Of a stretch of DNA of 64,000 nucleotides, positions 1 through 12,378 are shown in pieces. How positions within the stretch are numbered: the stretch's first letter is position 1; each line of letters starts with the position of its first letter. The translations under genes and the position numbers were made by a program. The notes beneath the pieces are model-generated. The model saw only the letters and a list, made by a program, of their open reading frames with translations, was not told where the DNA came from and did not search any database. Source of the stretch: a virus (Duplodnaviria > Caudoviricetes); IMG/VR virus record IMGVR_UViG_3300020190_000004; one strand, written 5' to 3'.

Positions 1-413
1 TACTGGTGCGGTACGGCCTCTACTAGCGCTTTTTCACTCTAAAACTGCCCAAAGTGTACCTCTTCGCAAAAACTTGTACCCACTTGGCGATCATCATGCG
101 ATTAGTTGCCAACACCTCTAAAAGCGCTCTGAACGTACAAATCTACCCGCATCTGGGTCTTTTAGGCAGTTTCCAGGGAAACAAGGGTCTACTTTTTTAG
201 TGTCTTAATAGAAGTCCTCTCGCGAGTATATTTTTTCGACACTCTCCGCACTTGTACCTCCCTAATCTCTCTCAGACCCACACCTGTCCTATTTCTCCCC
301 GTACGGGCGGTACGGGAGCCACCCAGTTGTCTACCCGGCCCATTCCGCTCCGCTACTCCATACGCTCGGGATGACAATTCCCTATTGGAGGATTTCCTGC
401 AATCCAAGACAAC

Positions 414-435
414 AAAAGGGAGGCGCTAACCTCCC
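414..435 (-). terminator. Rho-independent terminator
   Basis: GGGAGG-N6-CCTCCC stem followed by TTTT on the minus strand, downstream of ORF 476..823. Confidence 0.6.
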
Positions 436-475
436 GTGATGATGTTTATATCTCGATGGCGTGTTTCCCTATGGA

Positions 476-823
476 CTATAGCAATATGGCCGGGTAGTTC
501 TTGTCCAGGTCTCGCTTAAACTTTTTGCGTTTCTCGCTCCACTCCTGAGCGGTCTGCGTGATGGCGGCGACGTCCTCTGCTGTGAGCCCGGCGAAGCTGC
601 CGTACTTGGGCACCTGCGCCTCGAACTCTTTGATGGCCCGGGCCCTGTACTGGCGGCGCTCGTCTGCCTCAGCCAGGCGTTTCTGCCAGCGGTGCCAGCC
701 TGGAGTGCCCTCCGTGGCGTATCGGTCCTGGTCATCTCTAGACATTTTGCGGATCTCTGACAAGAACCCCCCGTAGACCTGTGATTGTTTCTCGACTACT
801 GTTTTTCTAACTCCGTTTCCCAT
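476..823 (-). CDS. hypothetical basic protein (115 aa)
   Basis: ORF starts just downstream of early promoter copy 845..916. Confidence 0.7.
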   Translation of the reverse strand: MGNGVRKTVVEKQSQVYGGFLSEIRKMSRDDQDRYATEGTPGWHRWQKRLAEADERRQYRARAIKEFEAQVPKYGSFAGLTAEDVAAITQTAQEWSEKRKKFKRDLDKNYPAILL

Positions 824-844
824 AGTTGTTTTGTATTATTTAAT

Positions 845-916
845 ATAGTATAAATTTAACCATTGTTTTCTTGCCATGCAAATTCTAGCGCAACTTTTTT
901 CTGTAAGTTATTAACA
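845..916 (-). promoter_or_regulatory. early promoter element copy 1 (TGTTAATAAC box + TTTG-N20-TAnnTTTA)
   Basis: Matches the repeated intergenic consensus; box-to-TTTGCA spacing 24 nt. Confidence 0.85.
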
Positions 917-1135
917 CTTGTTGGCGGGTACCCATTGTAGAGTGTTTGTGTAGGATTGTACGCTTGAGAGGTGGATGGTCTTTCTGCGGGTGGTACCGCC
1001 GATTGTGAGTACCTCTATGATGAGGTCATCTCCAACCCTCTCGACCACTCGGTCGGTAGAGTGAGCTCCAGTGGCTGGGTCTCTGTAGGCTATGCGGGTG
1101 CCAGCCTCAATGTGGTGTCGTGTAGTATCTTTCAT
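911..1135 (-). CDS. hypothetical protein (likely start MKDTTRHH)
   Basis: Tiles with neighbours; stop codon lies inside the TGTTAA box. Confidence 0.6.
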   Translation of the reverse strand: MKDTTRHHIEAGTRIAYRDPATGAHSTDRVVERVGDDLIIEVLTIGGTTRRKTIHLSSVQSYTNTLQWVPANKC

Positions 1136-1136
1136 A

Positions 1137-1334
1137 TTATGCTGTTTTTGATTGTTCGTATAGGTTAGACCATTGACGGATCTTTGCTTTCCACAGGAAA
1201 GGATGGTATAATACCATAGAACGAGCATAGCTGATAATATCCTCGGTAGCGTCAATATACCCTTGTTCTACCATGTAGGCATGTGCCTGAGTTAACTCCT
1301 TTTCTGTGAGTCCGTATGTGTTTATCTTTGCCAT
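1137..1334 (-). CDS. hypothetical protein (likely start MAKINT)
   Basis: ATG directly downstream of promoter copy 2. Confidence 0.6.
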   Translation of the reverse strand: MAKINTYGLTEKELTQAHAYMVEQGYIDATEDIISYARSMVLYHPFLWKAKIRQWSNLYEQSKTA

Positions 1335-1348
1335 ATCAGTTATTTGTT

Positions 1349-1422
1349 TATAGTATAAAATTAACCATAATAGTTGAACCATGCAAACTTTAAATGTTAA
1401 AAATAGTTAAAAGTTATTAACA
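1349..1422 (-). promoter_or_regulatory. early promoter element copy 2
   Basis: Consensus match; spacing 25 nt. Confidence 0.85.
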
Positions 1423-1704
1423 ATTTGAGCCGGACCTGATCGCCCGGATAGCCGTGGCTACGGCGACTGCGTAGGAGGCCAACTTCTCGTCTTGTGGGGC
1501 CTTGTAAGCCGCGTAGAGCATGTCGATGTTGTAGGCAGAAGCCCCGCCTATCTTGCAGTCGATCCACTGGCAAAAGTTGAGTAGGTCTGCTGAGTGGCGG
1601 ACTTGTAGCCTCTCTTCTGCGTAGTAGTAGCCCTCGGTAAAATTTCCTGTAGTCGAAGCGCCTTGAAGCAAAAGGGCTTTAGCGTAATTTGGTAAATTGT
1701 TCAT
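1417..1704 (-). CDS. hypothetical protein (95 aa)
   Basis: ORF track; ends Cys-stop within the box. Confidence 0.7.
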   Translation of the reverse strand: MNNLPNYAKALLLQGASTTGNFTEGYYYAEERLQVRHSADLLNFCQWIDCKIGGASAYNIDMLYAAYKAPQDEKLASYAVAVATAIRAIRSGSNC

Positions 1705-1715
1705 ATATTGATTAA

Positions 1716-1898
1716 TTAAGATAGTTTTTGAATTATTCCATTCTCATTAACAGACAGCTCATACATCAAACCAGAAAGGAAAAGTTTGAAAGATGATCGA
1801 CTCTTTCCATTTTCTATACAGTGATTTACGAGTTTCTGTAAATTGAGTTTATACTTTTCGGCCAACATATTAAGAAGAACCATTGTAGTGTTTTCCAT
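1716..1898 (-). CDS. hypothetical protein (60 aa)
   Basis: ATG immediately after promoter copy 3. Confidence 0.65.
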   Translation of the reverse strand: MENTTMVLLNMLAEKYKLNLQKLVNHCIENGKSRSSFKLFLSGLMYELSVNENGIIQKLS

Positions 1899-1899
1899 A

Positions 1900-1985
1900 T
1901 TGATTAATTAATTATAGTATAAATTTAACCATAGTTTTTGACACTGGCAAATTTTTGGGCAACTTTTTTCAAAAAGTTATTAACA
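1900..1985 (-). promoter_or_regulatory. early promoter element copy 3
   Basis: Consensus match; spacing 24 nt. Confidence 0.85.
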
Positions 1986-2070
1986 CTTGAGCGGTTAACA
2001 ACCCGCAGGGTATTATACGCGGCGGAGTATACTCGGTCCCGGCCGAGAAGCCGTTACAGTATTATTTGAT
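1986..2070 (-). ncRNA. candidate small structured RNA between promoter copies 4 and 3
   Basis: No ATG/ORF; three consecutive hairpins on the minus strand (CTCGG/CCGAG, TATAC/GTATA, GCGG..CCGC). Confidence 0.35.
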
Positions 2071-2133
2071 TATAGTATAAAATTAACCATTTGGATTGAC
2101 ACTGGCAATGGAAAAGTGAAAAAGTTATTAACA
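2071..2133 (-). promoter_or_regulatory. early promoter element copy 4
   Basis: Consensus match; spacing 14 nt. Confidence 0.8.
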
Positions 2134-2139
2134 CTTGGC

Positions 2140-3180
2140 CGGCGGTACCTCATCTACTGGGCAAACTACACTACGAGACCCCTGTAGACAGCGGGTTCTA
2201 AGAGGTAGAACGGCCTATTCTACCCGCTAGTAGAGCCAATATAGTAGTTATATTCACGCGTTAGACACTAGTTCTCCTCATTAGAAGTGAAAAAATGTCA
2301 CGTTTTGATGAGGTTTTGGGCCCTCCAGAGCGTGATTTAGGGGTGTTCTAGAACCGCCCCCTCAGAACAGCCGGCCAGGGCGCCTGCCACGGGCCCTCTA
2401 CAGGCCCTCTACCGTGAACTCGTCTGCTCTGGAGGGTGTCGTGGAGGGCCTCTGGAGATGAGGTTCTAGAGTGGACTAGCGTAGTAGCGGTAGTGGAGCA
2501 GTCCACCAGTGAGGGCGTAAAAGTTCAACTCAGTAGTAGCCGTCGACCTCATCCCCAGGGAGGCGCCAGGTGGCCCTCAATCACGGTCACTCCCAAGCTG
2601 CACCACCAGCGGCCAACACTCTCAGGACGTCACCGGTAGTCCTCGCTGGTGGAAGTCGGTGGAGAAGTGGCCCGGTGGCGCTGGGTCAGAGAGGCCACTC
2701 GGAGAGTGCAGCTCCGCCATCACTTCCGGCGGGATCGCGCTCGACCCACATCGGTTGGTAGTCTGCATTCAGTTGGGCAGAACCTGAGCGACCCGGCTCC
2801 GGGCAAGTGGCCTCGACACGTCCAGGGGTGTCGAGCAGAGCGCGAGCCCCCGGGAGAGGCTCATCCACTCAGACCAGGCGCTCTGGAGCCGGGCAGCCGA
2901 GCGGTAGAGGGCGCGGTGGAAGTGGTGGAAGCGCTCAGACTCCACACTGGTAGAAAGAGTAGTTGTACGGGGTCCTTAACGGGGCCGATAGAGTTGCAGG
3001 CAATGGCCGGTGGCCCGTAATGGCCGGCAACGGCGTTTAGGAGCGTGCAGGTCGATTAAAGGCCGTATGGGACTCGGTGTTTGATCGCTTTTGGCCTGGC
3101 ACCGGGTTATATGGGACCGTATAACGGCCTTTTAAGGCCGAAAACACTGGTTGTATGGCACATATTCTGGCCCAAAAGTA
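2140..3180. other. GC-rich non-coding region with nested inverted repeats (candidate large ncRNA or origin/terminus structure)
   Basis: Multiple 7-11 bp perfect complementary pairs in nested arrangement; no credible ORF. Confidence 0.5.
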
Positions 3181-3507
3181 CCTATGACTATTCTGACCAT
3201 AAAAAAAAGCTATATAAAATATAAACTTTACACTCCCGCATTAGAGGCATGAGTAAGACGAAGAATTGCTCAGACCACTTCTCCGGAGGATTTCGGCTGG
3301 GCAGTATTTTGCCCATGACTCTGGACCCGGCTCCTGTGATGACCCGGCTCCCAGGTTTGGATCTTCCCCTGCGACCTCTGGTGAAAAAAATTCTGGTAGT
3401 TTTTTCTGAGACGATTTTTAACATTCTCAGATTAACCGTCGCTCGGCGTGATGTGTTCACAATTCAGGGAAGCTGAATTGGAATACAGATTCTTCTCGCG
3501 CTGGTGG

Positions 3508-3738
3508 CTACTTGTGCAACTCGTTGCGCCACTCGGTGGTATCTCTCGGCGGGTTCCCTGTTGAGTCCCAGCCCTGGCGGTACGCCGTGTCAGGGTGGCG
3601 GAGTGGCGTCGATCCCTCCCCCTGCGATTCTCTCTCGGTGGGTTTCTTGCTGATCTTTTTGATCCCTACGTAGAGTGTCAGGACCATGAGGGCGACTACC
3701 CCCCAGTAGTAGATTTCGTTTGTGGTTTTCTTTCTCAT
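3508..3738 (-). CDS. small membrane protein (likely start MRKKTTNE)
   Basis: Single hydrophobic segment YYWGVVALMVLTLYVGI. Confidence 0.5.
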   Translation of the reverse strand: MRKKTTNEIYYWGVVALMVLTLYVGIKKISKKPTERESQGEGSTPLRHPDTAYRQGWDSTGNPPRDTTEWRNELHK

Positions 3739-3852
3739 GTGGTTTGTATTTATTCGTTGGTGAGTCTTGACTCGCGCCCGGAGGCTGTCTTCTGGGTGCA
3801 TCGTCTCTTAGTGTGTAAACACGGTGCGGTAAGTCGCACGGCCTCTGAGCGC

Positions 3853-4236
3853 TCAGAGTTTTGGCCCAAGAGGTTTCTTGCGTTGCAGAGGAAACCTGTG
3901 CGCGACTCCTCCCAGCAGATTCGCCTCACTGGTAATGTACATGTTTTGCTGGCGCAGAGTGAAGCTCCAGCTTTGCGAAATGTAGAACTCTGCGCGAACG
4001 TCGTAGCCTATGATGTTGCGAGGCGTCAAGTCGCCGCCCCAGTTGATTGTGTTGAAACCCAGCGATCCTGTCACCTTGCTGCGTGAGTTGGGCCACAGAG
4101 TGAAGAGACCCGGCTGAGGCTCTGAGTAGTAGTTGAGTGACAGGCGTTCAGGGAACTGCATCACCGGTGTGGGTTGGCGAAGTGGTTGAGCCGCAACGCC
4201 GGTTGTGAAGAGGAGCGCGAACACTAGTGGCCTCAT
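3853..4236 (-). CDS. secreted/outer-membrane-like protein (likely start MRPLVFALL)
   Basis: Signal-peptide-like N-terminus (MRPLVFALLFTTGVAAQP); ATGA overlap with the upstream stop. Confidence 0.55.
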   Translation of the reverse strand: MRPLVFALLFTTGVAAQPLRQPTPVMQFPERLSLNYYSEPQPGLFTLWPNSRSKVTGSLGFNTINWGGDLTPRNIIGYDVRAEFYISQSWSFTLRQQNMYITSEANLLGGVAHRFPLQRKKPLGPKL

Positions 4237-4448
4237 AGCATCATCTTGTAGATTAGCAACTGCAGCACAGAGAGAGCGAAAAGGCAGACGGATATCAACA
4301 CCACTCCATAGACTACTTTGGGCAGCCACTGAGATTCTTCGCTGTGTGCGAAGAAGCGTGGAGCGGCGGGCCCGTTCTTTAAGACCTCACTGTTGTTTCT
4401 TATCGTGAGTAAGATGAAGATGCAGATGAGCAAAAGGGAGACTAACAT
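4233..4448 (-). CDS. two-TM membrane protein (likely start MLVSLLL)
   Basis: Two hydrophobic segments; the longer ORF call overlaps the RadA-like gene. Confidence 0.5.
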   Translation of the reverse strand: MLVSLLLICIFILLTIRNNSEVLKNGPAAPRFFAHSEESQWLPKVVYGVVLISVCLFALSVLQLLIYKMML

Positions 4449-4491
4449 AAGTTTAATTTTAGATTTATATACACAGGAAGCAACCTGGTTC

Positions 4492-5697
4492 TTAGGCCGC
4501 AGAAGCAAAGATCCAAGCCTCTTCACGGGCGATGCGTGTGATTTCTTTCCACATCTTGTGAGTGTGTTTTTGGTAACCCTTGAAAAGGTGGACCCACTCG
4601 TGAAGGACTCCCCACAAGAGTGCTTCCTCGCGATTCTTGATGAACTTGTGCGCGTACGGCCATTCACTGCGGTAGCCAAGTTTCAAGAAGTTGTCGTTGG
4701 TTATCTTATCGAAGAATTTGCGACCCAGAGTAATCTTACCGGCTTTAAAAGTACAGCAGAATCTTTTGCCTTCCCAAGATAAGTGAACTTTAGCAGGATC
4801 ACCTACGAATGTGCTGGTGACAAAGCGGTCAGCGTGTTTGGCGTTTAAGTAGTTGATGATGGAAGTAGCAGCGTCTTTGAACTTTTCCCATGACTCGGAA
4901 TTTCCGTTTGCTGCTTTAAAGTCCATGACAATGTCAGAAACTTCATCAGCAGAGCTGGTGTCTATCCGACTCCACCATTCGTTACCCACGAATACACCTT
5001 CAGGGTTGATGCGGAAGGCGTACTGCTCCATGTTACCACCAAAGCGATTCTTTGACATAGAGAAGAGGCGCTCTTGAGTTTCACGGTCATACCATACTTT
5101 TAAGTGAGAGTCAACCTCGTGTTTCAAGAATGATGGGCCAGCGTAATCACCGCCTTTTCCGTTGTGACCGATGAGCAAGACAGGCGTAAAAGTTTCTTTA
5201 GCCCACTTGGTGAATTTCTCAACCAAGACTACCTGACCGCGAGTCGGACCTTGTGGCATCTTGCTGGCCATCTTTTGTAGAGAGTCTACAATCAAGAGAG
5301 CCGGTTGAATTTTCTCAAGAGCCCCGAACAGTTCTTCCATTCCGCCGACTTTTCCGTGAAACTCGTGAGTTGAGATAAGCATAGTGTCGAAACCTGGTAT
5401 CTTGCGAGCTTGAGTTTTCAATTGGAAGTCACTCATCTCGTAAGAAAGGAAAACTACGGGACGGTCAGTGTTAGCAGTCAAGCGCGACCCAATCACAGCG
5501 CATAGAGTAGTCTTACCTGAACCTGGGTTACCTGTTACCAGTGTAACTTGAGAAGGGATGAGTCCGCCCAACTCAGAGAAAGTGGAGTCAAGCTCCGGCG
5601 AGTTGGTTTTGATTGGATGAAAGAATTGGTCCGGAACAACGATGTCCGATACTTTCTTGAACAGGTCAAGAACATTGTTTTCAGAGGTTTTTACCAT
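4492..5697 (-). CDS. RadA/Sms-like ATPase fused to a SprT-like HExxH metallopeptidase domain
   Basis: Walker A GNPGSGKTT, Walker B LLIVDSLQ, RadA motif KNRFG; C-terminal LHEWVH...H. Confidence 0.8.
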   Translation of the reverse strand: MVKTSENNVLDLFKKVSDIVVPDQFFHPIKTNSPELDSTFSELGGLIPSQVTLVTGNPGSGKTTLCAVIGSRLTANTDRPVVFLSYEMSDFQLKTQARKIPGFDTMLISTHEFHGKVGGMEELFGALEKIQPALLIVDSLQKMASKMPQGPTRGQVVLVEKFTKWAKETFTPVLLIGHNGKGGDYAGPSFLKHEVDSHLKVWYDRETQERLFSMSKNRFGGNMEQYAFRINPEGVFVGNEWWSRIDTSSADEVSDIVMDFKAANGNSESWEKFKDAATSIINYLNAKHADRFVTSTFVGDPAKVHLSWEGKRFCCTFKAGKITLGRKFFDKITNDNFLKLGYRSEWPYAHKFIKNREEALLWGVLHEWVHLFKGYQKHTHKMWKEITRIAREEAWIFASAA

Positions 5698-5699
5698 GT

Positions 5700-5785
5700 T
5701 TGATTAATTAATTATAGTATAAAATTAACCAATAAAAACTTACCATGCAAACTTTTGGGCAACTTTTTTTCAAAAGTTATTAACA
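5700..5785 (-). promoter_or_regulatory. early promoter element copy 5
   Basis: Consensus match; spacing 24 nt; TTTG-N20-TAATTTTA. Confidence 0.9.
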
Positions 5786-5787
5786 CT

Positions 5788-6006
5788 TTACATACCGCTA
5801 AACTTGTCATAGACATAGTCGCGCACTGCTTCATATTCTTCTTCTGTAAGTTGCTCGTCATTTTCAATTACGATGTCATCATCAGCACTCCAAGCAGACT
5901 CTTCCCATTCATATGTGCCTTCTACTTCTTTACCATTAATGATAAGATTAAAGGTGTACACAGACCGTGTAAACCTGTGGCTTTGTGCAAAGTCAGTTAT
6001 TTCCAT
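5788..6006 (-). CDS. small acidic hypothetical protein
   Basis: ORF track; very Asp/Glu-rich. Confidence 0.65.
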   Translation of the reverse strand: MEITDFAQSHRFTRSVYTFNLIINGKEVEGTYEWEESAWSADDDIVIENDEQLTEEEYEAVRDYVYDKFSGM

Positions 6007-6011
6007 TTTTC

Positions 6012-6539
6012 TTAGTTTTCTTCGTTTTCAGTTTCATCTTCGTAATAACCTAGTAATACAGGTTCAACGATATCAGACATACCCGCTAGTTCTTCCTTGG
6101 CCCCGTCAATACTTTCCTGGCCATAAATAGGTGAAAAGTTAGGTCTCTGTTGAAAAGGCACGTTTTCACGGTTATTCCAAGCCGCCAGATCTTTTTCCCA
6201 CTGCGGAATCCAGCTTTCCAGGTAGCGCTTATTGCGCCATCGCTCTGCATCTTCCAGTGTAGGAAAGTAGTATACGTCTCCGTAGGTGTCAATCTTTAAG
6301 TCTGGATTGGTAGTGTATACATCAATGATACCGTCATCGCCATCATACCGATAGCACAGGTCTTGGACACATTGCGGATTGGTGTGGCGCTCAGTCCAGT
6401 TGCGTCCGTATGAACGCACCTTGCACTCATAGAGGTAGCCATCATCGTAGGCATAGATGAGACATTCTACCTGTTCACGTACCTCCTTGAGTTGTTCAAA
6501 GCTGAGGTTTTTCAAAAAGTTTTCAATTCGTTTTTTCAT
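6012..6539 (-). CDS. hypothetical protein (175 aa)
   Basis: ORF tiling. Confidence 0.75.
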   Translation of the reverse strand: MKKRIENFLKNLSFEQLKEVREQVECLIYAYDDGYLYECKVRSYGRNWTERHTNPQCVQDLCYRYDGDDGIIDVYTTNPDLKIDTYGDVYYFPTLEDAERWRNKRYLESWIPQWEKDLAAWNNRENVPFQQRPNFSPIYGQESIDGAKEELAGMSDIVEPVLLGYYEDETENEEN

Positions 6540-6548
6540 ATGCCGTTT

Positions 6549-6866
6549 TTAGTAATCGTAATCATCCACGTCACCGTGGCTGTGACGTTCATTCCAAGTG
6601 GCCACATTGGCCCAGTACTGCTCTTCTGGGTCGGGTGGGCAGTATGTATCGGGTTCTTCTTCCTCCACGTAGGGCACGTCGTTGATGGCACCTAAGCTAA
6701 TTCCCTTCCAGGGAAACTCAGCTTCGATAATCTTCCAGGCACGACCCTTAGTGGGTGCATTAACATGGACTTCATTGTAGGGCGGTGAGACCCTTTCAGT
6801 GTAAACGTGAAATGTGTATTTGTTCATAGTCTTAGTTTTAAGCGTTATATGAATTGAATTGTTCAT
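6549..6866 (-). CDS. hypothetical acidic protein
   Basis: ORF tiling; true start may be internal (MNKYTF). Confidence 0.6.
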   Translation of the reverse strand: MNNSIHITLKTKTMNKYTFHVYTERVSPPYNEVHVNAPTKGRAWKIIEAEFPWKGISLGAINDVPYVEEEEPDTYCPPDPEEQYWANVATWNERHSHGDVDDYDY

Positions 6867-7101
6867 GGTCCATTTGGGCCAATTCAGTTAGTGCAGCATC
6901 ATAAGACTTGCCTTTGTAAAACACATAGTAGCCGGTAGTGCCGTGATCTGCCCAGCCGTTAAACGATTCGCTAAGCAAAGAATGGAAGGTGTCCATTACG
7001 CCTTTCCAATAGAGACGACCCGCGTCAGATTGTTTGTACTCTTCTTGTTTCTCGCGAGCTTCCGCGTACTTTTGAATGAGGTATTCTGCGTTGTTTATCA
7101 T
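6838..7101 (-). CDS. hypothetical protein (87 aa)
   Basis: ORF tiling with ATGA overlap. Confidence 0.7.
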   Translation of the reverse strand: MINNAEYLIQKYAEAREKQEEYKQSDAGRLYWKGVMDTFHSLLSESFNGWADHGTTGYYVFYKGKSYDAALTELAQMDHEQFNSYNA

Positions 7102-7286
7102 AGTTCTTCAGGGTTGTTAATTAGTTCGTTAATGTCGTTGTAGGCCAAGTCACATTCATGAGACTCGCTACCGCCTTCCTCGATTTCCGAGACGGCAAGC
7201 GAGTAGAAGTCCCAAATGTCATTGGCGTGCTGAGGATGCTCTTTGACCAGTCTCAGCGATTCTTTACGTAGTTCAGATAGTGTCAT
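7098..7286 (-). CDS. hypothetical protein (62 aa)
   Basis: ORF tiling. Confidence 0.65.
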   Translation of the reverse strand: MTLSELRKESLRLVKEHPQHANDIWDFYSLAVSEIEEGGSESHECDLAYNDINELINNPEEL

Positions 7287-7748
7287 AGTTATGCAGGTAT
7301 TTGATGTTTGTAAATGTTGGTGTTTTACCCAAAGATGACTTCTTCAAAGAAAACAGTTTGCAAGACCGCGTCGGCATCACTTGCATCATCCTGTTCTTCA
7401 TGAAAGTTGATAAGGACATGCGCACCCACATCCTTGACACGCTCATGCACATCTTGAAGAGTAATGCTTCGTGTCATATCACCGTCGCCTTCATGGTCGA
7501 TAAAGGTAAGCTCTCCACCATCACGAAGAACTTGCATAAGCACGTCTTCGTAACAGATGGCTATGCCAGGATGCAGGGTTTCCAGATGTTCGCGGCTAGA
7601 CTTGTACTGGCTGCGATCACAGCTTAATTCCAATCCGTAGCCTTCCATGTAGCCTGTGCCTACGGTATTGCACAGTGAAGAGTAGAAGATCTCCTCCGAC
7701 TCTTGTGGTGTTAGTTGTATTGTCATAGTTATGCAGGTATTTGATGTT
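7281..7748. repeat. 28-bp direct repeat (7281..7308 and 7721..7748) flanking gene 7325..7726
   Basis: TGTCATAGTTATGCAGGTATTTGATGTT is identical at both sites. Confidence 0.9.
7325..7726 (-). CDS. hypothetical acidic protein (133 aa)
   Basis: ORF tiling. Confidence 0.75.
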   Translation of the reverse strand: MTIQLTPQESEEIFYSSLCNTVGTGYMEGYGLELSCDRSQYKSSREHLETLHPGIAICYEDVLMQVLRDGGELTFIDHEGDGDMTRSITLQDVHERVKDVGAHVLINFHEEQDDASDADAVLQTVFFEEVIFG

Positions 7749-7989
7749 CGTGAATGTCAACGTTGGCCAGGGAAAAGTAGTAGATGTTCATCGACCGCAT
7801 GTACGGAACGCCCAGATACTCGTCCTCAAAGTCCACGTCCTCGATCTGCGAGTGGTAGACGTAACCCATTTCGTTGAGCGTCTTGAGTTCACGTAGGGAC
7901 AGTTCATCTCCGTCTTCCAGGATATATTCGTAGACGTTGTTGTTAGTATCATCCTTGTGCAAGTTGTTTAAGATTTCTTCCTTTGTCAT
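7729..7989 (-). CDS. hypothetical protein (86 aa)
   Basis: ORF tiling. Confidence 0.7.
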   Translation of the reverse strand: MTKEEILNNLHKDDTNNNVYEYILEDGDELSLRELKTLNEMGYVYHSQIEDVDFEDEYLGVPYMRSMNIYYFSLANVDIHEHQIPA

Positions 7990-7993
7990 ATGT

Positions 7994-8257
7994 TTAGTTT
8001 AAGAGTTTACCTTGATGTAGATTGTGTAACGCAATTTCCAAGAAGCGGGCATCAGTAGGTTCCACGGCAAATGTAATGTGGAGGTCGTACCCGGTAACGT
8101 CCATTTCCGATTTGGTAATCACAGGTGGAAACAAATCGTTCTCAAATTCTGCGGCAATATCCAGTCGAACCCCGTCAATGAAAGAGTCCCGTTTGCCGTT
8201 CTCGTTTTCCCGAATCCATTTAGGCAGATCACGAAAGGTGTAGGTTTGTGTTATCAT
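7994..8257 (-). CDS. hypothetical protein (87 aa)
   Basis: ORF tiling. Confidence 0.7.
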   Translation of the reverse strand: MITQTYTFRDLPKWIRENENGKRDSFIDGVRLDIAAEFENDLFPPVITKSEMDVTGYDLHITFAVEPTDARFLEIALHNLHQGKLLN

Positions 8258-8260
8258 ATC

Positions 8261-8509
8261 TTACTTAATTTTGCTAGCGTTAGTTTCTTCGTAAGCAGCT
8301 TCTTGAGTGCAGTGGCATTCAGCCAGTCGGAACATGTATTGCGACTGGTTAGCTGGAAAGTAGCGGTAGAACCATTTAGCGGTTTGCGTAAATGTAGGAC
8401 GATCTTCAACGATGTCGTTAAGCCAGCAAGAAGATGCAAATGAATTACCCGTGTTGAGTAAGAATTCTTGTACCTCGTGTTTTGAAAATGTAGATTCTTT
8501 AAGTGCCAT
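8261..8509 (-). CDS. hypothetical protein (82 aa)
   Basis: ATG directly after promoter copy 6. Confidence 0.7.
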   Translation of the reverse strand: MALKESTFSKHEVQEFLLNTGNSFASSCWLNDIVEDRPTFTQTAKWFYRYFPANQSQYMFRLAECHCTQEAAYEETNASKIK

Positions 8510-8510
8510 A

Positions 8511-8596
8511 TTGATTAATTAATTATAGTATAAAAATAACCACTTTAAACTTACCATGCAAACTTTTGTGAAACTTTTTTCATAAAGTTATTAACA
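8511..8596 (-). promoter_or_regulatory. early promoter element copy 6
   Basis: Consensus match; spacing 24 nt. Confidence 0.9.
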
Positions 8597-8598
8597 AT

Positions 8599-9429
8599 TT
8601 AACTTATTCTTTTGACCACGTCTCGTATGCGAGTGTACACTTCTATGAAGACGGGCAGGCTCATCAGTGAGACTAGGAAGTTATTGATGTATGTGTAAAT
8701 GCTTATGGCAGTTCCGTGAGAGAGTCCCATGCTGGAGCTTGTAAAGAGGGCAAGAGCTACTATCAGAAACATAGTCTTAGTTCCGTTTATGCCAAACCAA
8801 TGCTTGGCTGCTAGTGTTGATTGAGCAATGATTAGCTTTCGCCTTCTTTCATAAAAGGTGTGGATCTTTGCATCTTCTTGCGTATCCATAATTCCAAACT
8901 TTTGTTCATAGTGAGAGTTGCCCACTCTCATAGCTTGAGCAATTTTCTTATAGAAGACTTTCACAACAAGTGCTATGAAAGGTAAGCAAGCGATCATGAC
9001 CCATCCCGTGACAAGGCTCTGTATGAATATGAAGTATAGACTTCCTATGATAGTAAGAACAGCTGATATGTAATAGTGTAAGTGGTGTTCAATAAAGTCT
9101 ATGACTACGTGTAGCATTTCAGTTCTGGCTACTTTTGCAGAAGTGTCTGATGCTGCATCTCGCTTTAAGTAATCAGCTACGATTTCATTGTAAATTCTTG
9201 TGTACACGCGTATGTCATATACCATTCGCTTGTACATAAAGAGGTTTTCTCCCATGTGCGCGCCGAAAAGAGCAAACAGGTAAGTGTAGTCGTGGACAAG
9301 TAGTCCGTCTATCGCTTTACCCAAGAAGTAAGGTTCAAGCAGGAAGAGAACTTGTCCAGCTATGATGTATGTGTATATAAGTGCTATCTGCCAACGGTGA
9401 CTTCTGAGGATTGCATATATGTTCTTCAT
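8599..9429 (-). CDS. ABC transporter six-helix transmembrane domain protein (ABC_membrane_3-like), no ATPase domain
   Basis: Multiple TM helices; LLEPYFLGKAIDGLL motif typical of ABC exporter TMDs. Confidence 0.65.
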   Translation of the reverse strand: MKNIYAILRSHRWQIALIYTYIIAGQVLFLLEPYFLGKAIDGLLVHDYTYLFALFGAHMGENLFMYKRMVYDIRVYTRIYNEIVADYLKRDAASDTSAKVARTEMLHVVIDFIEHHLHYYISAVLTIIGSLYFIFIQSLVTGWVMIACLPFIALVVKVFYKKIAQAMRVGNSHYEQKFGIMDTQEDAKIHTFYERRRKLIIAQSTLAAKHWFGINGTKTMFLIVALALFTSSSMGLSHGTAISIYTYINNFLVSLMSLPVFIEVYTRIRDVVKRIS

Positions 9430-10347: not shown

Positions 10348-10889
10348 TCGCGAAGAAAGTTGATGAATTCTTGTAGGTGCACTCTTGAAGTGCTGTGTGA
10401 TGGCATAGCGATAGTTCCGTCATCAGTGATGAAAGGCCTGTATAAGACAGTACCAAACTCCGGCAAGCCATTTGTCTTTTCTTCAAACTCTGTGCCTAAG
10501 AACTGGCCGTCAAGATTACACCAGCTGCCCATGACCAGGTATATTCTGTCATCGTCTTCGGCAAGGTTTTGATTACCGTCGAGTATTTCTTGAAGACCGT
10601 CAGCAAGTGCATCGCAATCTTCTTGATTGTCTGGACCGGCTCCGTCATTGCTTCCATAGTGTGAAGTGTCAATGTCAAGACCTTTCCGCGCAATGACTGT
10701 GTCTATCAGCATATGAATTGGTCTCCAGCTCCACCAGTTAGCGCGAAAGTAATCGCCTGGGTTTTCTTTTTCCCAGTAACCGTGTAGTTCAAAGTACTTG
10801 TCTTTTTCTTCTTGTGTTGCGGTGTCCCAATCAATAGTTGGTTTAGTTCCGCGGATGATGGGATCCCTCCCTGTGATATCTACTCCCAT
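10323..10889 (-). CDS. hypothetical protein (188 aa)
   Basis: ORF tiling; YFRANWWSWRP motif. Confidence 0.75.
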   Translation of the reverse strand: MGVDITGRDPIIRGTKPTIDWDTATQEEKDKYFELHGYWEKENPGDYFRANWWSWRPIHMLIDTVIARKGLDIDTSHYGSNDGAGPDNQEDCDALADGLQEILDGNQNLAEDDDRIYLVMGSWCNLDGQFLGTEFEEKTNGLPEFGTVLYRPFITDDGTIAMPSHSTSRVHLQEFINFLRECGGFQIW

Positions 10890-10891
10890 GA

Positions 10892-11218
10892 TTAAGCTTT
10901 TTGTAACATTGTTATTGATGCACGAATTCTTTTAGCAACCGGCGTACCAAAGACAGGATGTTTGTATTCAGATCCTTCTTCTGCAAGAACAGCAGTCTTA
11001 GCGCTGATTTTTTCGATTCGGTAAAACTTGCCAATGCAACGAGGATCATTAATAGTAACACGAGCACCTTTAGATAAAGTTCTCTTGATGTTTAAGCGAG
11101 TTTGAGCAATCCGGTGATTGATTTCGCTAACGATCATATTGTTTAATGAACGTAAATCGCTGTCTGATAAATTGTCCATTGATTTTCCAAGGACTGTGGT
11201 GATTTCTGAGTAACTCAT
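10892..11218 (-). CDS. hypothetical protein (108 aa)
   Basis: Downstream of promoter copy 7. Confidence 0.7.
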   Translation of the reverse strand: MSYSEITTVLGKSMDNLSDSDLRSLNNMIVSEINHRIAQTRLNIKRTLSKGARVTINDPRCIGKFYRIEKISAKTAVLAEEGSEYKHPVFGTPVAKRIRASITMLQKA

Positions 11219-11237
11219 ATTGAATAATTATTTATTG

Positions 11238-11299
11238 ATAGTATAAAATTAACCATTTGTTTCTTACCATGCAAATTTATTTTCACAAAGTTATTAACA
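11238..11299 (-). promoter_or_regulatory. early promoter element copy 7
   Basis: Consensus match; spacing 14 nt. Confidence 0.85.
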
Positions 11300-11301
11300 C
11301 T

Positions 11302-12378
11302 TTATTCATCGGTTTTGAACGGTTTACTCCAAGTAGGTCTAACCATTTTCCACGCGATGTCATTACCGTCACGCTTGTCAAGAAACCTAAAGATGATTGA
11401 CTTGAGAGGGTGATCTTTGATAGCAAGTGCGTATTCTTTTCTATTAGCTTCACCAAGTCGAAGAGTCACACGTTCAAATTCTTCATGTGCTTCCCACAAG
11501 ATGTCAGTGTGCTTGTAATGAAGTTCACGCTCAGTCATGCGAACCCAGTCAAAGAATTCATCAGGCACTCTCTCTAGTAATTCATCAAGCGGTTCGTTAT
11601 TCTTTAACTTTTCCCAGATGCTAACATTTGATACTTGAGTAACTATGCGGTGTAAACGAACATATTCTTCAAACTTAACCTTAACTCGGAAGCCATTATT
11701 GAACCTGATAACATAACCCTCTCGATTGGGCTCATTCTGTGACCTGAGATGTTCCCAAGATTCCTTTACATTGTATTTATTTACTAAATTAAAAGAAGTA
11801 CCGAGATGTTCTTCTATATTCTTCCTTGCTATCTCTTGACCTGTTGCAGTTTCGATTACTCCCAATAACACAAGTTTCTCTTCATTACCGTAGTTAACCA
11901 CTATGCGGTTTTCTGGGTATATGATTTCAAAGATATGTGTGTGACCGTAAGCAAGATCTTGGTAAGGAAGAGCTTGTAACATCTTCCAACCACGAACAGC
12001 CTGTTCTGAAGTAAAAGAACCTCTTGAAGCAAAGACAGGTTGTAGAGTTTCAGTCTTGTCATCAACATACCAAAAGAAGATGCCCAGTGAACCGTCCATC
12101 TTTTCATAAACCTCGAACGGCAGGTCAGGTATTTGTCCTGGTACTTCTGAAGCGTTAAAGAATTTTTCAAAGGGGCGAGCAACTACTTGGCCTTTACTGT
12201 TAAGAACCAAACCACGAGCAGCTAAAGTTTCAGGAGTCCAACGGCCTTCATACTGAGTCTTTTGAGAATAGTTGTATATCGTCAAGTCCAATGTAGGGTG
12301 TACTTGAGAGATTAACCAGCCTTCTCTTACCAACTCGTCGTATGTTTCTTTACAGTTTGCCATTTTTATGTGTTTCAC
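11302..12378 (-). CDS. RNA ligase (T4 Rnl1 family)
   Basis: Motif I EKMDGS; RGLV...RPFEKFFN; EIIYPENRIVV; EGYV...VKVKF. Confidence 0.9.
   Translation of the reverse strand: MKHIKMANCKETYDELVREGWLISQVHPTLDLTIYNYSQKTQYEGRWTPETLAARGLVLNSKGQVVARPFEKFFNASEVPGQIPDLPFEVYEKMDGSLGIFFWYVDDKTETLQPVFASRGSFTSEQAVRGWKMLQALPYQDLAYGHTHIFEIIYPENRIVVNYGNEEKLVLLGVIETATGQEIARKNIEEHLGTSFNLVNKYNVKESWEHLRSQNEPNREGYVIRFNNGFRVKVKFEEYVRLHRIVTQVSNVSIWEKLKNNEPLDELLERVPDEFFDWVRMTERELHYKHTDILWEAHEEFERVTLRLGEANRKEYALAIKDHPLKSIIFRFLDKRDGNDIAWKMVRPTWSKPFKTDE

Follow-up and report, generated by a model that had tools for sequence, protein, structure and literature searches.

A GC-rich kilobase in the early region of a jumbo phage: probably untranslated DNA in rapid evolution, not a conserved giant RNA

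The non-coding RNAs of the GOLLD and ROOL classes are several hundred to a thousand nucleotides long, are often phage-borne and are GC-rich compared with their AT-rich surroundings, and GOLLD was first seen in lake metagenomes (PMC12286853, PMC5737381). The window analysed here is a stretch of 64,000 nucleotides of caudoviral DNA (IMG/VR record IMGVR_UViG_3300020190_000004), and a sequence-only reading had suggested that a GC-rich block near its left end is either a new large RNA, perhaps of this kind, or a DNA-level structure such as an origin, packaging site or terminal junction. The block resembles GOLLD and ROOL in size, non-coding nature, phage location and GC-richness within AT-rich surroundings. 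However, it differs from them by having no covariance-model match (E ≤ 5), no conservation of sequence or helices in close relatives and no tRNA genes nearby.

A second comparison is offered by the hyperplastic regions of T4-type phages, in which promoter/stem-loop (PeSL) cassettes mediate gene shuffling (PMC2839356, PMC4122927). The block also lies in an early region full of repeated early-promoter cassettes of about 90 nt, a composite motif which flanks variable content, and what lies between the cassettes is swapped among phages (three ORFs in L004, other genes in L044, a GC-rich cassette here). Unlike the described PeSL cassettes, which carry small ORFs, the block offers about 1 kb without any ORF, though the upstream part of its cassette does have ORFs; it is also far more GC-rich than the phage and dense in inverted repeats.

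Two other kinds of element share single traits with the locus. The rut regions used by Rho are C-rich, G-poor, untranslated RNA. The block is likewise untranslated, in each of the four phages compared its sense strand has more C than G, and it is placed between a transcription unit and the next promoters without an intrinsic terminator. Typical rut sites, however, are far shorter and less structured, and L044 does have an intrinsic terminator. Transcript-primed origins include ColE1 RNA II and the R-loop origins oriF and oriG of T4. The locus has in common with these a promoter-like box ahead of a long untranslated region with strand-asymmetric G and C; here, in contrast, the strand transcribed from the conserved box would be C-rich rather than G-rich, and neither an unwinding element nor iterons were recognised. 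As relatives retain no more of the block than its promoter-like start and about 200 bases, it has the appearance of untranslated DNA that evolves fast, and not of a giant structured RNA under conservation.

Composition and coding content of the block

Nearly all long ORFs of the window are on the minus strand, and its genes include those for a tail sheath, a large terminase, a tail-fibre protein, an Rnl1-type RNA ligase and a RecA/DnaB-like ATPase. Its secreted protein is encoded on a contig of 238,241 nt, with whose start the left end of the window probably coincides. The GC profile reaches 0.55-0.66 over 2250-3150, compared with some 0.38-0.45 elsewhere. The eight 1-kb windows with the highest GC in the 64 kb all start within 2001-2701, with a maximum of 0.589 against a median of 0.398, which bears out the earlier description of a GC-rich block in an AT-rich, gene-dense genome. 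The coordinates of the block, of its segments and of neighbouring features are collected in Table 1.

Equally confirmed is the lack of a credible ORF. The longest ORF with an ATG, GTG or TTG start is arginine-rich and has 123 aa (2649-3020, plus strand), stop-to-stop frames do not exceed 126 aa, and none of the long frames of the block has a match in Pfam (E ≤ 1) or PHROGs (E ≤ 0.1). No coding signal was obtained by tblastx of the block against the corresponding blocks of its relatives and the gene found there in L044; the conservation detected is independent of frame, at the nucleotide level, and confined to 2986-3210. When ORFs are counted permissively, just two gaps of at least 300 nt are left in the 64 kb, and 1705-2648 is one of them. 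ARAGORN predicted no tRNA or tmRNA, and tRNA genes are not found nearby.

At the DNA level, the only blastn match of the block in the phage collection is the promoter motif of Chryseobacterium phage MA9V-2, the plasmid collection contains no match, and the repeat-dense part (2140-2950) is without homologue in all collections searched. Since the block sequence is present in 24 lake-water runs and separate contigs span the junction at 2140, an assembly chimera is ruled out. The contigs from four low-share runs represent the same strain at low coverage, with no informative variants, and leave the block partly uncovered. Altogether, the observations support a block that is non-coding, compositionally foreign to the phage and self-complementary above chance.

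Table 1. Features in and around the GC-rich block (window positions; strand given where assigned)
Feature	Position	Strand	Remarks
Early promoter cassette, copy 4	2061..2142	-	Fires leftwards, away from the block; copy 3 at 1903-1994
GC-rich untranslated block	2140..3172	- (strand most likely transcribed)	Delimited by GC profile, no credible ORF or family match, excess of inverted and direct repeats
Distal segment	2140..2489		Densest inverted repeats (7-mers 27 vs 4.8); short stretches of 2491-2422 common to L042 and the region behind the L044 gene
Perfect 11-bp inverted repeat	2321..2436		2321-2331 with 2426-2436 around 94 nt; arm motif also at the extreme end of the L042 contig
Hairpin domain	2457..2553		2457-2464 with 2546-2553, inner 2471-2477 with 2500-2506; not conserved in L042
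Most GC-rich core (0.63-0.68)	2490..2989		Apparently missing in L042, not alignable with L008
Proximal segment	2990..3172	-	Sole part alignable with relatives; no inverted-repeat excess
Bacteroidota-type promoter-like box	3173..3207	-	T-run/TTTA, 19-20 nt spacer, TACTTTTG at 3180-3173; aimed into the block
AT-rich element	3181..3248		Between block and small plus-strand ORF; conserved in all five related contigs
Small ORF	3249..3476	+	First ~30 codons conserved; ORFs of relatives 35, 41 and 77 aa
Nucleotide-conserved stretch	3380..3500		Behind membrane-protein gene; short hairpin and A6...T7 motif; 27-mer identical in L008
GC-elevated cassette genes	3508..4442	-	Upstream of block: membrane protein 4442-4233, secreted 127-aa protein 4236-3856, membrane protein 3738-3508; homologues P0006, P0007, P0009, P0010

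The locus in related phages and its conserved border

Homology searches with the ATPase and the secreted protein led to the relatives. According to ATPase identity with the window, they are L008/L009 (89.5%), L047 (86%), L042/L043 (75%) and L044/L045 (73%), while tblastn of the ATPase against the phage collection returned no close phage. In IMG/VR phages with 65% ATPase identity, including L004, three ORFs replace the whole GC-rich cassette. Pattern scans of IMG/VR gave three chance matches, in coding DNA only, for the 11-bp arms with their gap, no match for two conserved 20-mers and only 12 chance matches for the -7 box pattern; a metagenome scan with a conserved 18-mer recovered only L021, which is the same strain.

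In L008, L042 and L047 a non-coding block starts at the same point as in the window, and the AT-rich element, the start of the small plus-strand ORF and, with one change, the -7 box are present in all three. The conserved part of the block among relatives is limited to about 200-250 nt at the right-hand border. Identity between window and L008 is 70-73% across the first ~250 nt (blastn), and the remainder is not confidently alignable. Within the proximal segment, a 24-mer around 3084-3107 and the first ~15 nt (3164-3178) are invariant. In L042 the colinear anchors jump from window position 2999 to 2488 and continue with 2436-2422, so that the most GC-rich core apparently lacks about 500 nt in this phage. 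The arrangement of L044 is different: the element is followed by a 180-nt leader, the gene for a secreted protein of 139 aa, a stretch resembling window 2491-2441 and, directly ahead of the early promoters, a canonical terminator formed by a hairpin and T6. This 139-aa protein was considered as a homologue of the secreted protein of the window and rejected, the two being unrelated.

Despite unalignable sequence, GC at the locus is elevated in L008 and L042 too (0.53-0.56). In the sense of the genes, C and G fractions are 0.36/0.24 in the proximal part of the window block, 0.31/0.21 in L008, 0.31/0.25 in L042 and 0.29/0.18 in L047. These phages have short motifs in common (CCCTCTAC(A)G type, ACCTCATCTA and TCTAGA-centred palindromes), sometimes in flipped orientation relative to the genes. 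The block is built of short GC-rich motifs which recur both directly and inverted, and only its right-hand border is conserved; the rest, as far as the contig comparisons show, evolves by large insertions, deletions and rearrangements.

Several other particularities of the related contigs were recorded. Four of them, from different assemblies, end 250-410 nt inside their version of the block (L008 at 7248, L042 at 7323, L043 at 7321 and L047 at 2798), and the 238-kb contig of the window itself appears to start about 2 kb beyond it. The shared ends may reflect a feature that breaks assemblies (microdiversity, rearrangement or inversion, or loss of coverage), an indication which is weak at these coverages. 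A 52.5-kb contig carrying P0028 has 1.1 kb without called genes at 10451-11559, 2.2 kb downstream of an ATPase with 71% identity, and this interval could be a full-length counterpart of the block. In L044, positions 3290-3430 contain tandem units of about 20 nt of the GATCTGGAG/GATCTGAGCT type, in the region matching the small plus-strand ORF of the window.

A promoter scan of 1-6500 found, besides the early promoters, one minus-strand site with a perfect -7 box (TAnnTTTG), located at the right border of the block, and no plus-strand box of Bacteroidota type firing into the block. The -33 element of this candidate promoter is merely a T-run. Its -7 box is retained with the single change mentioned above in three relatives and is absent from L044. 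The AT-rich element is probably a divergent promoter region. The small ORF on its other side runs on the strand opposite to all its neighbours and has a conserved start (M..KKY..F ... HDPG/PMTLD) in L008, L042 and L047; most probably this is a genuine gene for a micro-protein, transcribed from a promoter of its own within the AT-rich element. Positions 3380-3500 are a non-coding stretch with conservation far above that of the flanking genes, and tblastx matches it in several frames.

The early promoters themselves form a family of at least 13 near-identical minus-strand copies of about 90 nt, and a small gene lies behind every copy. Their type is that of Bacteroidota (TTTG, 20 nt, TAATTTTA), and the same motif was found in Chryseobacterium phage MA9V-2. 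The octamer TATAAAAT has 13 sites, all on the plus strand (5.3 expected), for example at 1354, 2076, 5718, 11242, 14727 and 62613, and 10 of the 13 are the -7 box of such a minus-strand cassette. No intrinsic terminator was found on the minus strand from 3508 to 2140. At the left end of the window, 1-440 is ORF-poor and C-rich (GC skew -0.29) and ends at a terminator-like minus-strand hairpin (435-418); the contig start (1-470) has no similarity with the block.

The sequence-only reading had left the strand of the block undecided, and it can now be narrowed. Because the box at the right border is conserved, all neighbouring genes have the same sense and no rightward promoter was found at the left border, transcription of the minus strand would be the better guess.

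Pairings, folding and the question of a structured RNA

All six nested perfect pairings described earlier, together with their inner ones, are exactly complementary, position for position. The excess of stems over dinucleotide-shuffled sequence, whose absence would have counted against that description, is also present: within 400 nt the block has 29 perfect inverted 8-mers against 6.6 ± 3.5 in global dinucleotide shuffles (about four times as many) and 7.8 ± 3.7 in 100-nt block shuffles, and 68 inverted 7-mers against 24-28 in shuffles, counts that none of 300 shuffles reached. Windows overlapping 1501-3000 are the top inverted-repeat outliers of the 64 kb. The excess is located in 2140-2950 and absent from 2830-3180, and direct repeats are enriched in the block as well.

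For the whole block, the minimum free energy (MFE) corresponds to z-scores of -3.9 (plus strand) and -2.9 (minus strand), whereas the z-scores of 200-450-nt segments stay between -0.3 and -2.2, a range equal to that of coding controls. The Boltzmann ensemble favours two of the six helices, 2457/2546 (probability 0.97-0.99) and 2792/2885 (0.5-0.85), while the other four are outcompeted by alternative pairings. The hairpin at 2457-2553 is the only one of the six that is highly probable on both strands. Many of the best inverted repeats of the block cross or exclude each other.

Several individual motifs of the block stand out. An imperfect palindrome of 21-22 bp centred on TCTAGA occupies 2338-2359, and motifs with this same centre recur in the blocks of L008 and L042. 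The 11-mer GACCCGGCTCC is found in direct orientation at 2790-2800, 3324-3334 and 3341-3351, with its first 9 nt inverted at 2885-2893; these copies connect the core of the block to a window-specific insertion in the small plus-strand ORF and so hint at local copying of GC-rich motifs. K-mer sharing between core and flanks is only modestly in excess, and controls are raised as well. The recurrence of GTAG on the plus strand, pointed out earlier, is real (minus-strand CTAC 14 against 7.8) but is not particular to the block and was rejected as a block-specific signal, as the neighbouring early coding genes at 6000-9000 have 29 against 14.4.

The proposal of a new conserved RNA of GOLLD or ROOL kind is not supported: there is no Rfam match, the helices that can be compared with a relative are not conserved and the blocks of relatives fold like shuffled sequence. 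Concerning the first point, cmscan of Rfam gave no match, neither for the whole window at the gathering score nor for 1700-4600 at E ≤ 5. Group I and group II introns had no Rfam match either, and the flanks of the block are intergenic. As for the helices, the third domain of the earlier description (2457-2553) is not seen again where L042 has homologous sequence. For the blocks of L008 and L042, MFE z-scores run from +1.65 to -0.47, no better than shuffles; these blocks have an excess of direct repeats but none of inverted repeats.

Over the alignable 200 nt of three phages, RNAalifold gave 43 pairs at -23.9 kcal/mol for the plus strand; for the minus strand the numbers were 28 and -12.4. The consensus energy is about one third of the single-sequence energies. 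Compared with column-shuffled alignments, these consensus energies have z-scores of -1.6 (plus) and -1.0 (minus), which are not significant, for three distinct homologues that cover the block partly. Counts of apparently compensatory pairs exceeded partner shuffles and were rejected as circular, the structures having been derived from the same alignment; column shuffles performed nearly as well. A conserved ornate RNA is therefore not supported by the sequence comparison, which would argue against it; the comparison is mute on a lineage-specific fold of 2140-2950, because this repeat-dense part has no homologue in the collections searched.

Such a lineage-specific RNA is the first alternative to be weighed. 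It would be a large structured ncRNA read from either strand (the G/U-rich plus strand folds best), whose sequence drifts while its GC hairpin modules remain functional, acting in trans, for example as a scaffold or sponge. A GC-rich island maintained in an AT-rich, densely coding genome that tolerates a kilobase without genes would be understandable on these terms, as would the fourfold inverted-repeat excess, the whole-block energies and a GC content still high in L008 and L042 in spite of sequence turnover. In the proximal segment, a closing helix (around 3087-3096 with 3168-3178) occurs in three phages with one compensatory change. Nevertheless, this RNA would be one that Rfam does not match, that finds no significant consensus in three sequences, whose relatives fold like shuffles, and in which many pairings are mutually exclusive. 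Its third domain is not conserved in L042, in which some 500 nt are apparently dispensable, and in L044 a protein gene takes its place. We regard it as unlikely.

A proposed variable cassette tail and its competitors

The reading that we prefer, at a probability of roughly 0.35, is that the block is the untranslated, repeat-built and fast-evolving tail of a variable early-region cassette in a T4-related jumbo phage of a Bacteroidota host, probably transcribed from the minus strand and acting in cis as a buffer or termination zone. Host RNA polymerase would start at the Bacteroidota-type box (3204-3173) and transcribe the block leftwards, in the sense of its neighbours, to give a C-rich RNA which would never be translated. 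The nested perfect pairings would be a by-product of local motif duplication and inversion rather than the scaffold of one defined fold, as four observations suggest: repeats are in excess in direct as well as inverted orientation, the arms pair in strict Watson-Crick fashion, numerous pairings exclude one another and the orientation of motifs flips between phages. In cis, the block may serve as a buffer or as a zone of Rho-type termination helped by stable hairpins; Rho is proposed because the block is untranslated and has more C than G. Transcription of the cassette would then end ahead of the early-promoter array that begins at 2142, plausibly a common need given that the cassette of L044 is closed, at the corresponding end, by an intrinsic terminator.

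Some observations do not fit this cassette-tail reading easily. That 1 kb of GC-rich DNA is kept in a densely coding phage, and that GC is elevated in L008 and L042, suggests selection on composition or structure beyond a mere buffer. The inverted-repeat excess in 2140-2950 is strong, in precisely the part without homologue. The plus strand folds more stably in absolute terms and has the richer consensus structure. The candidate promoter has only the T-run at -33, and L044 does without its -7 box. Finally, stable GC hairpins are atypical of Rho loading sites.

On another account the block would be a functionless remnant, GC-rich DNA that came in by horizontal transfer (decayed genes of a cassette, for example) and still awaits removal. 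GC is in fact raised in the neighbouring cassette genes too (0.53-0.57) and in further patches within the first 4.5 kb, no alignment of the distal part with close relatives can be made, as is expected of neutral DNA at such divergence, and L044 has a gene at this place. Against this account, no frame of the block has protein similarity, nor does its DNA have similarity in phage or plasmid collections. An inverted-repeat excess is not expected of decayed coding sequence, control coding regions having much less, and high GC persists across several lineages. This account appears to us improbable.

A role of the DNA itself, as a rearrangement hotspot (inversion or template switching between short inverted repeats) or as a transcription-primed replication origin, is quite unlikely. 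In its favour, the arms are perfectly Watson-Crick, nested and crossing, the same motifs are oppositely oriented in different phages, indel turnover is rapid, contigs of L008, L042/L043 and L047 stop inside the block with the 238-kb contig apparently starting near it, the promoter-like box faces untranslated DNA and the plus strand is G-rich (GC skew up to +0.23). Against it, no strand-changing joint was seen in the block among the low-coverage contigs of four runs, contig ends in such assemblies weigh little, no recombinase was noticed nearby, no iterons were recognised, with no motif exceeding five copies, and a C-rich minus-sense transcript disfavours stable R-loops. The cumulative GC skew of the 64 kb, which are only a part of the genome, peaks near 9 kb and not at the block. 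Just as doubtful is the idea of a new, lineage-restricted class of long early ncRNA in Bacteroidota jumbo phages, with a conserved host-type promoter, a likewise conserved 5' domain of about 200 nt and expandable GC-rich hairpin modules, in which modular structure or composition would be selected rather than sequence.

If the block is merely a repeat-built spacer, as the cassette-tail reading would have it, an AT-rich phage genome may contain GC-rich islands full of hairpins without this alone counting as evidence for an ornate RNA, and untranslated DNA on the kilobase scale can reside in the variable early regions of T4-type phages. If instead it turns out to be transcribed into a functional RNA, or to be a hotspot of rearrangement, the block would represent a rare non-coding element kept by position and composition in uncultured freshwater jumbo phages, and the conserved promoter-like box with the 5' segment would provide a handle for finding further copies.
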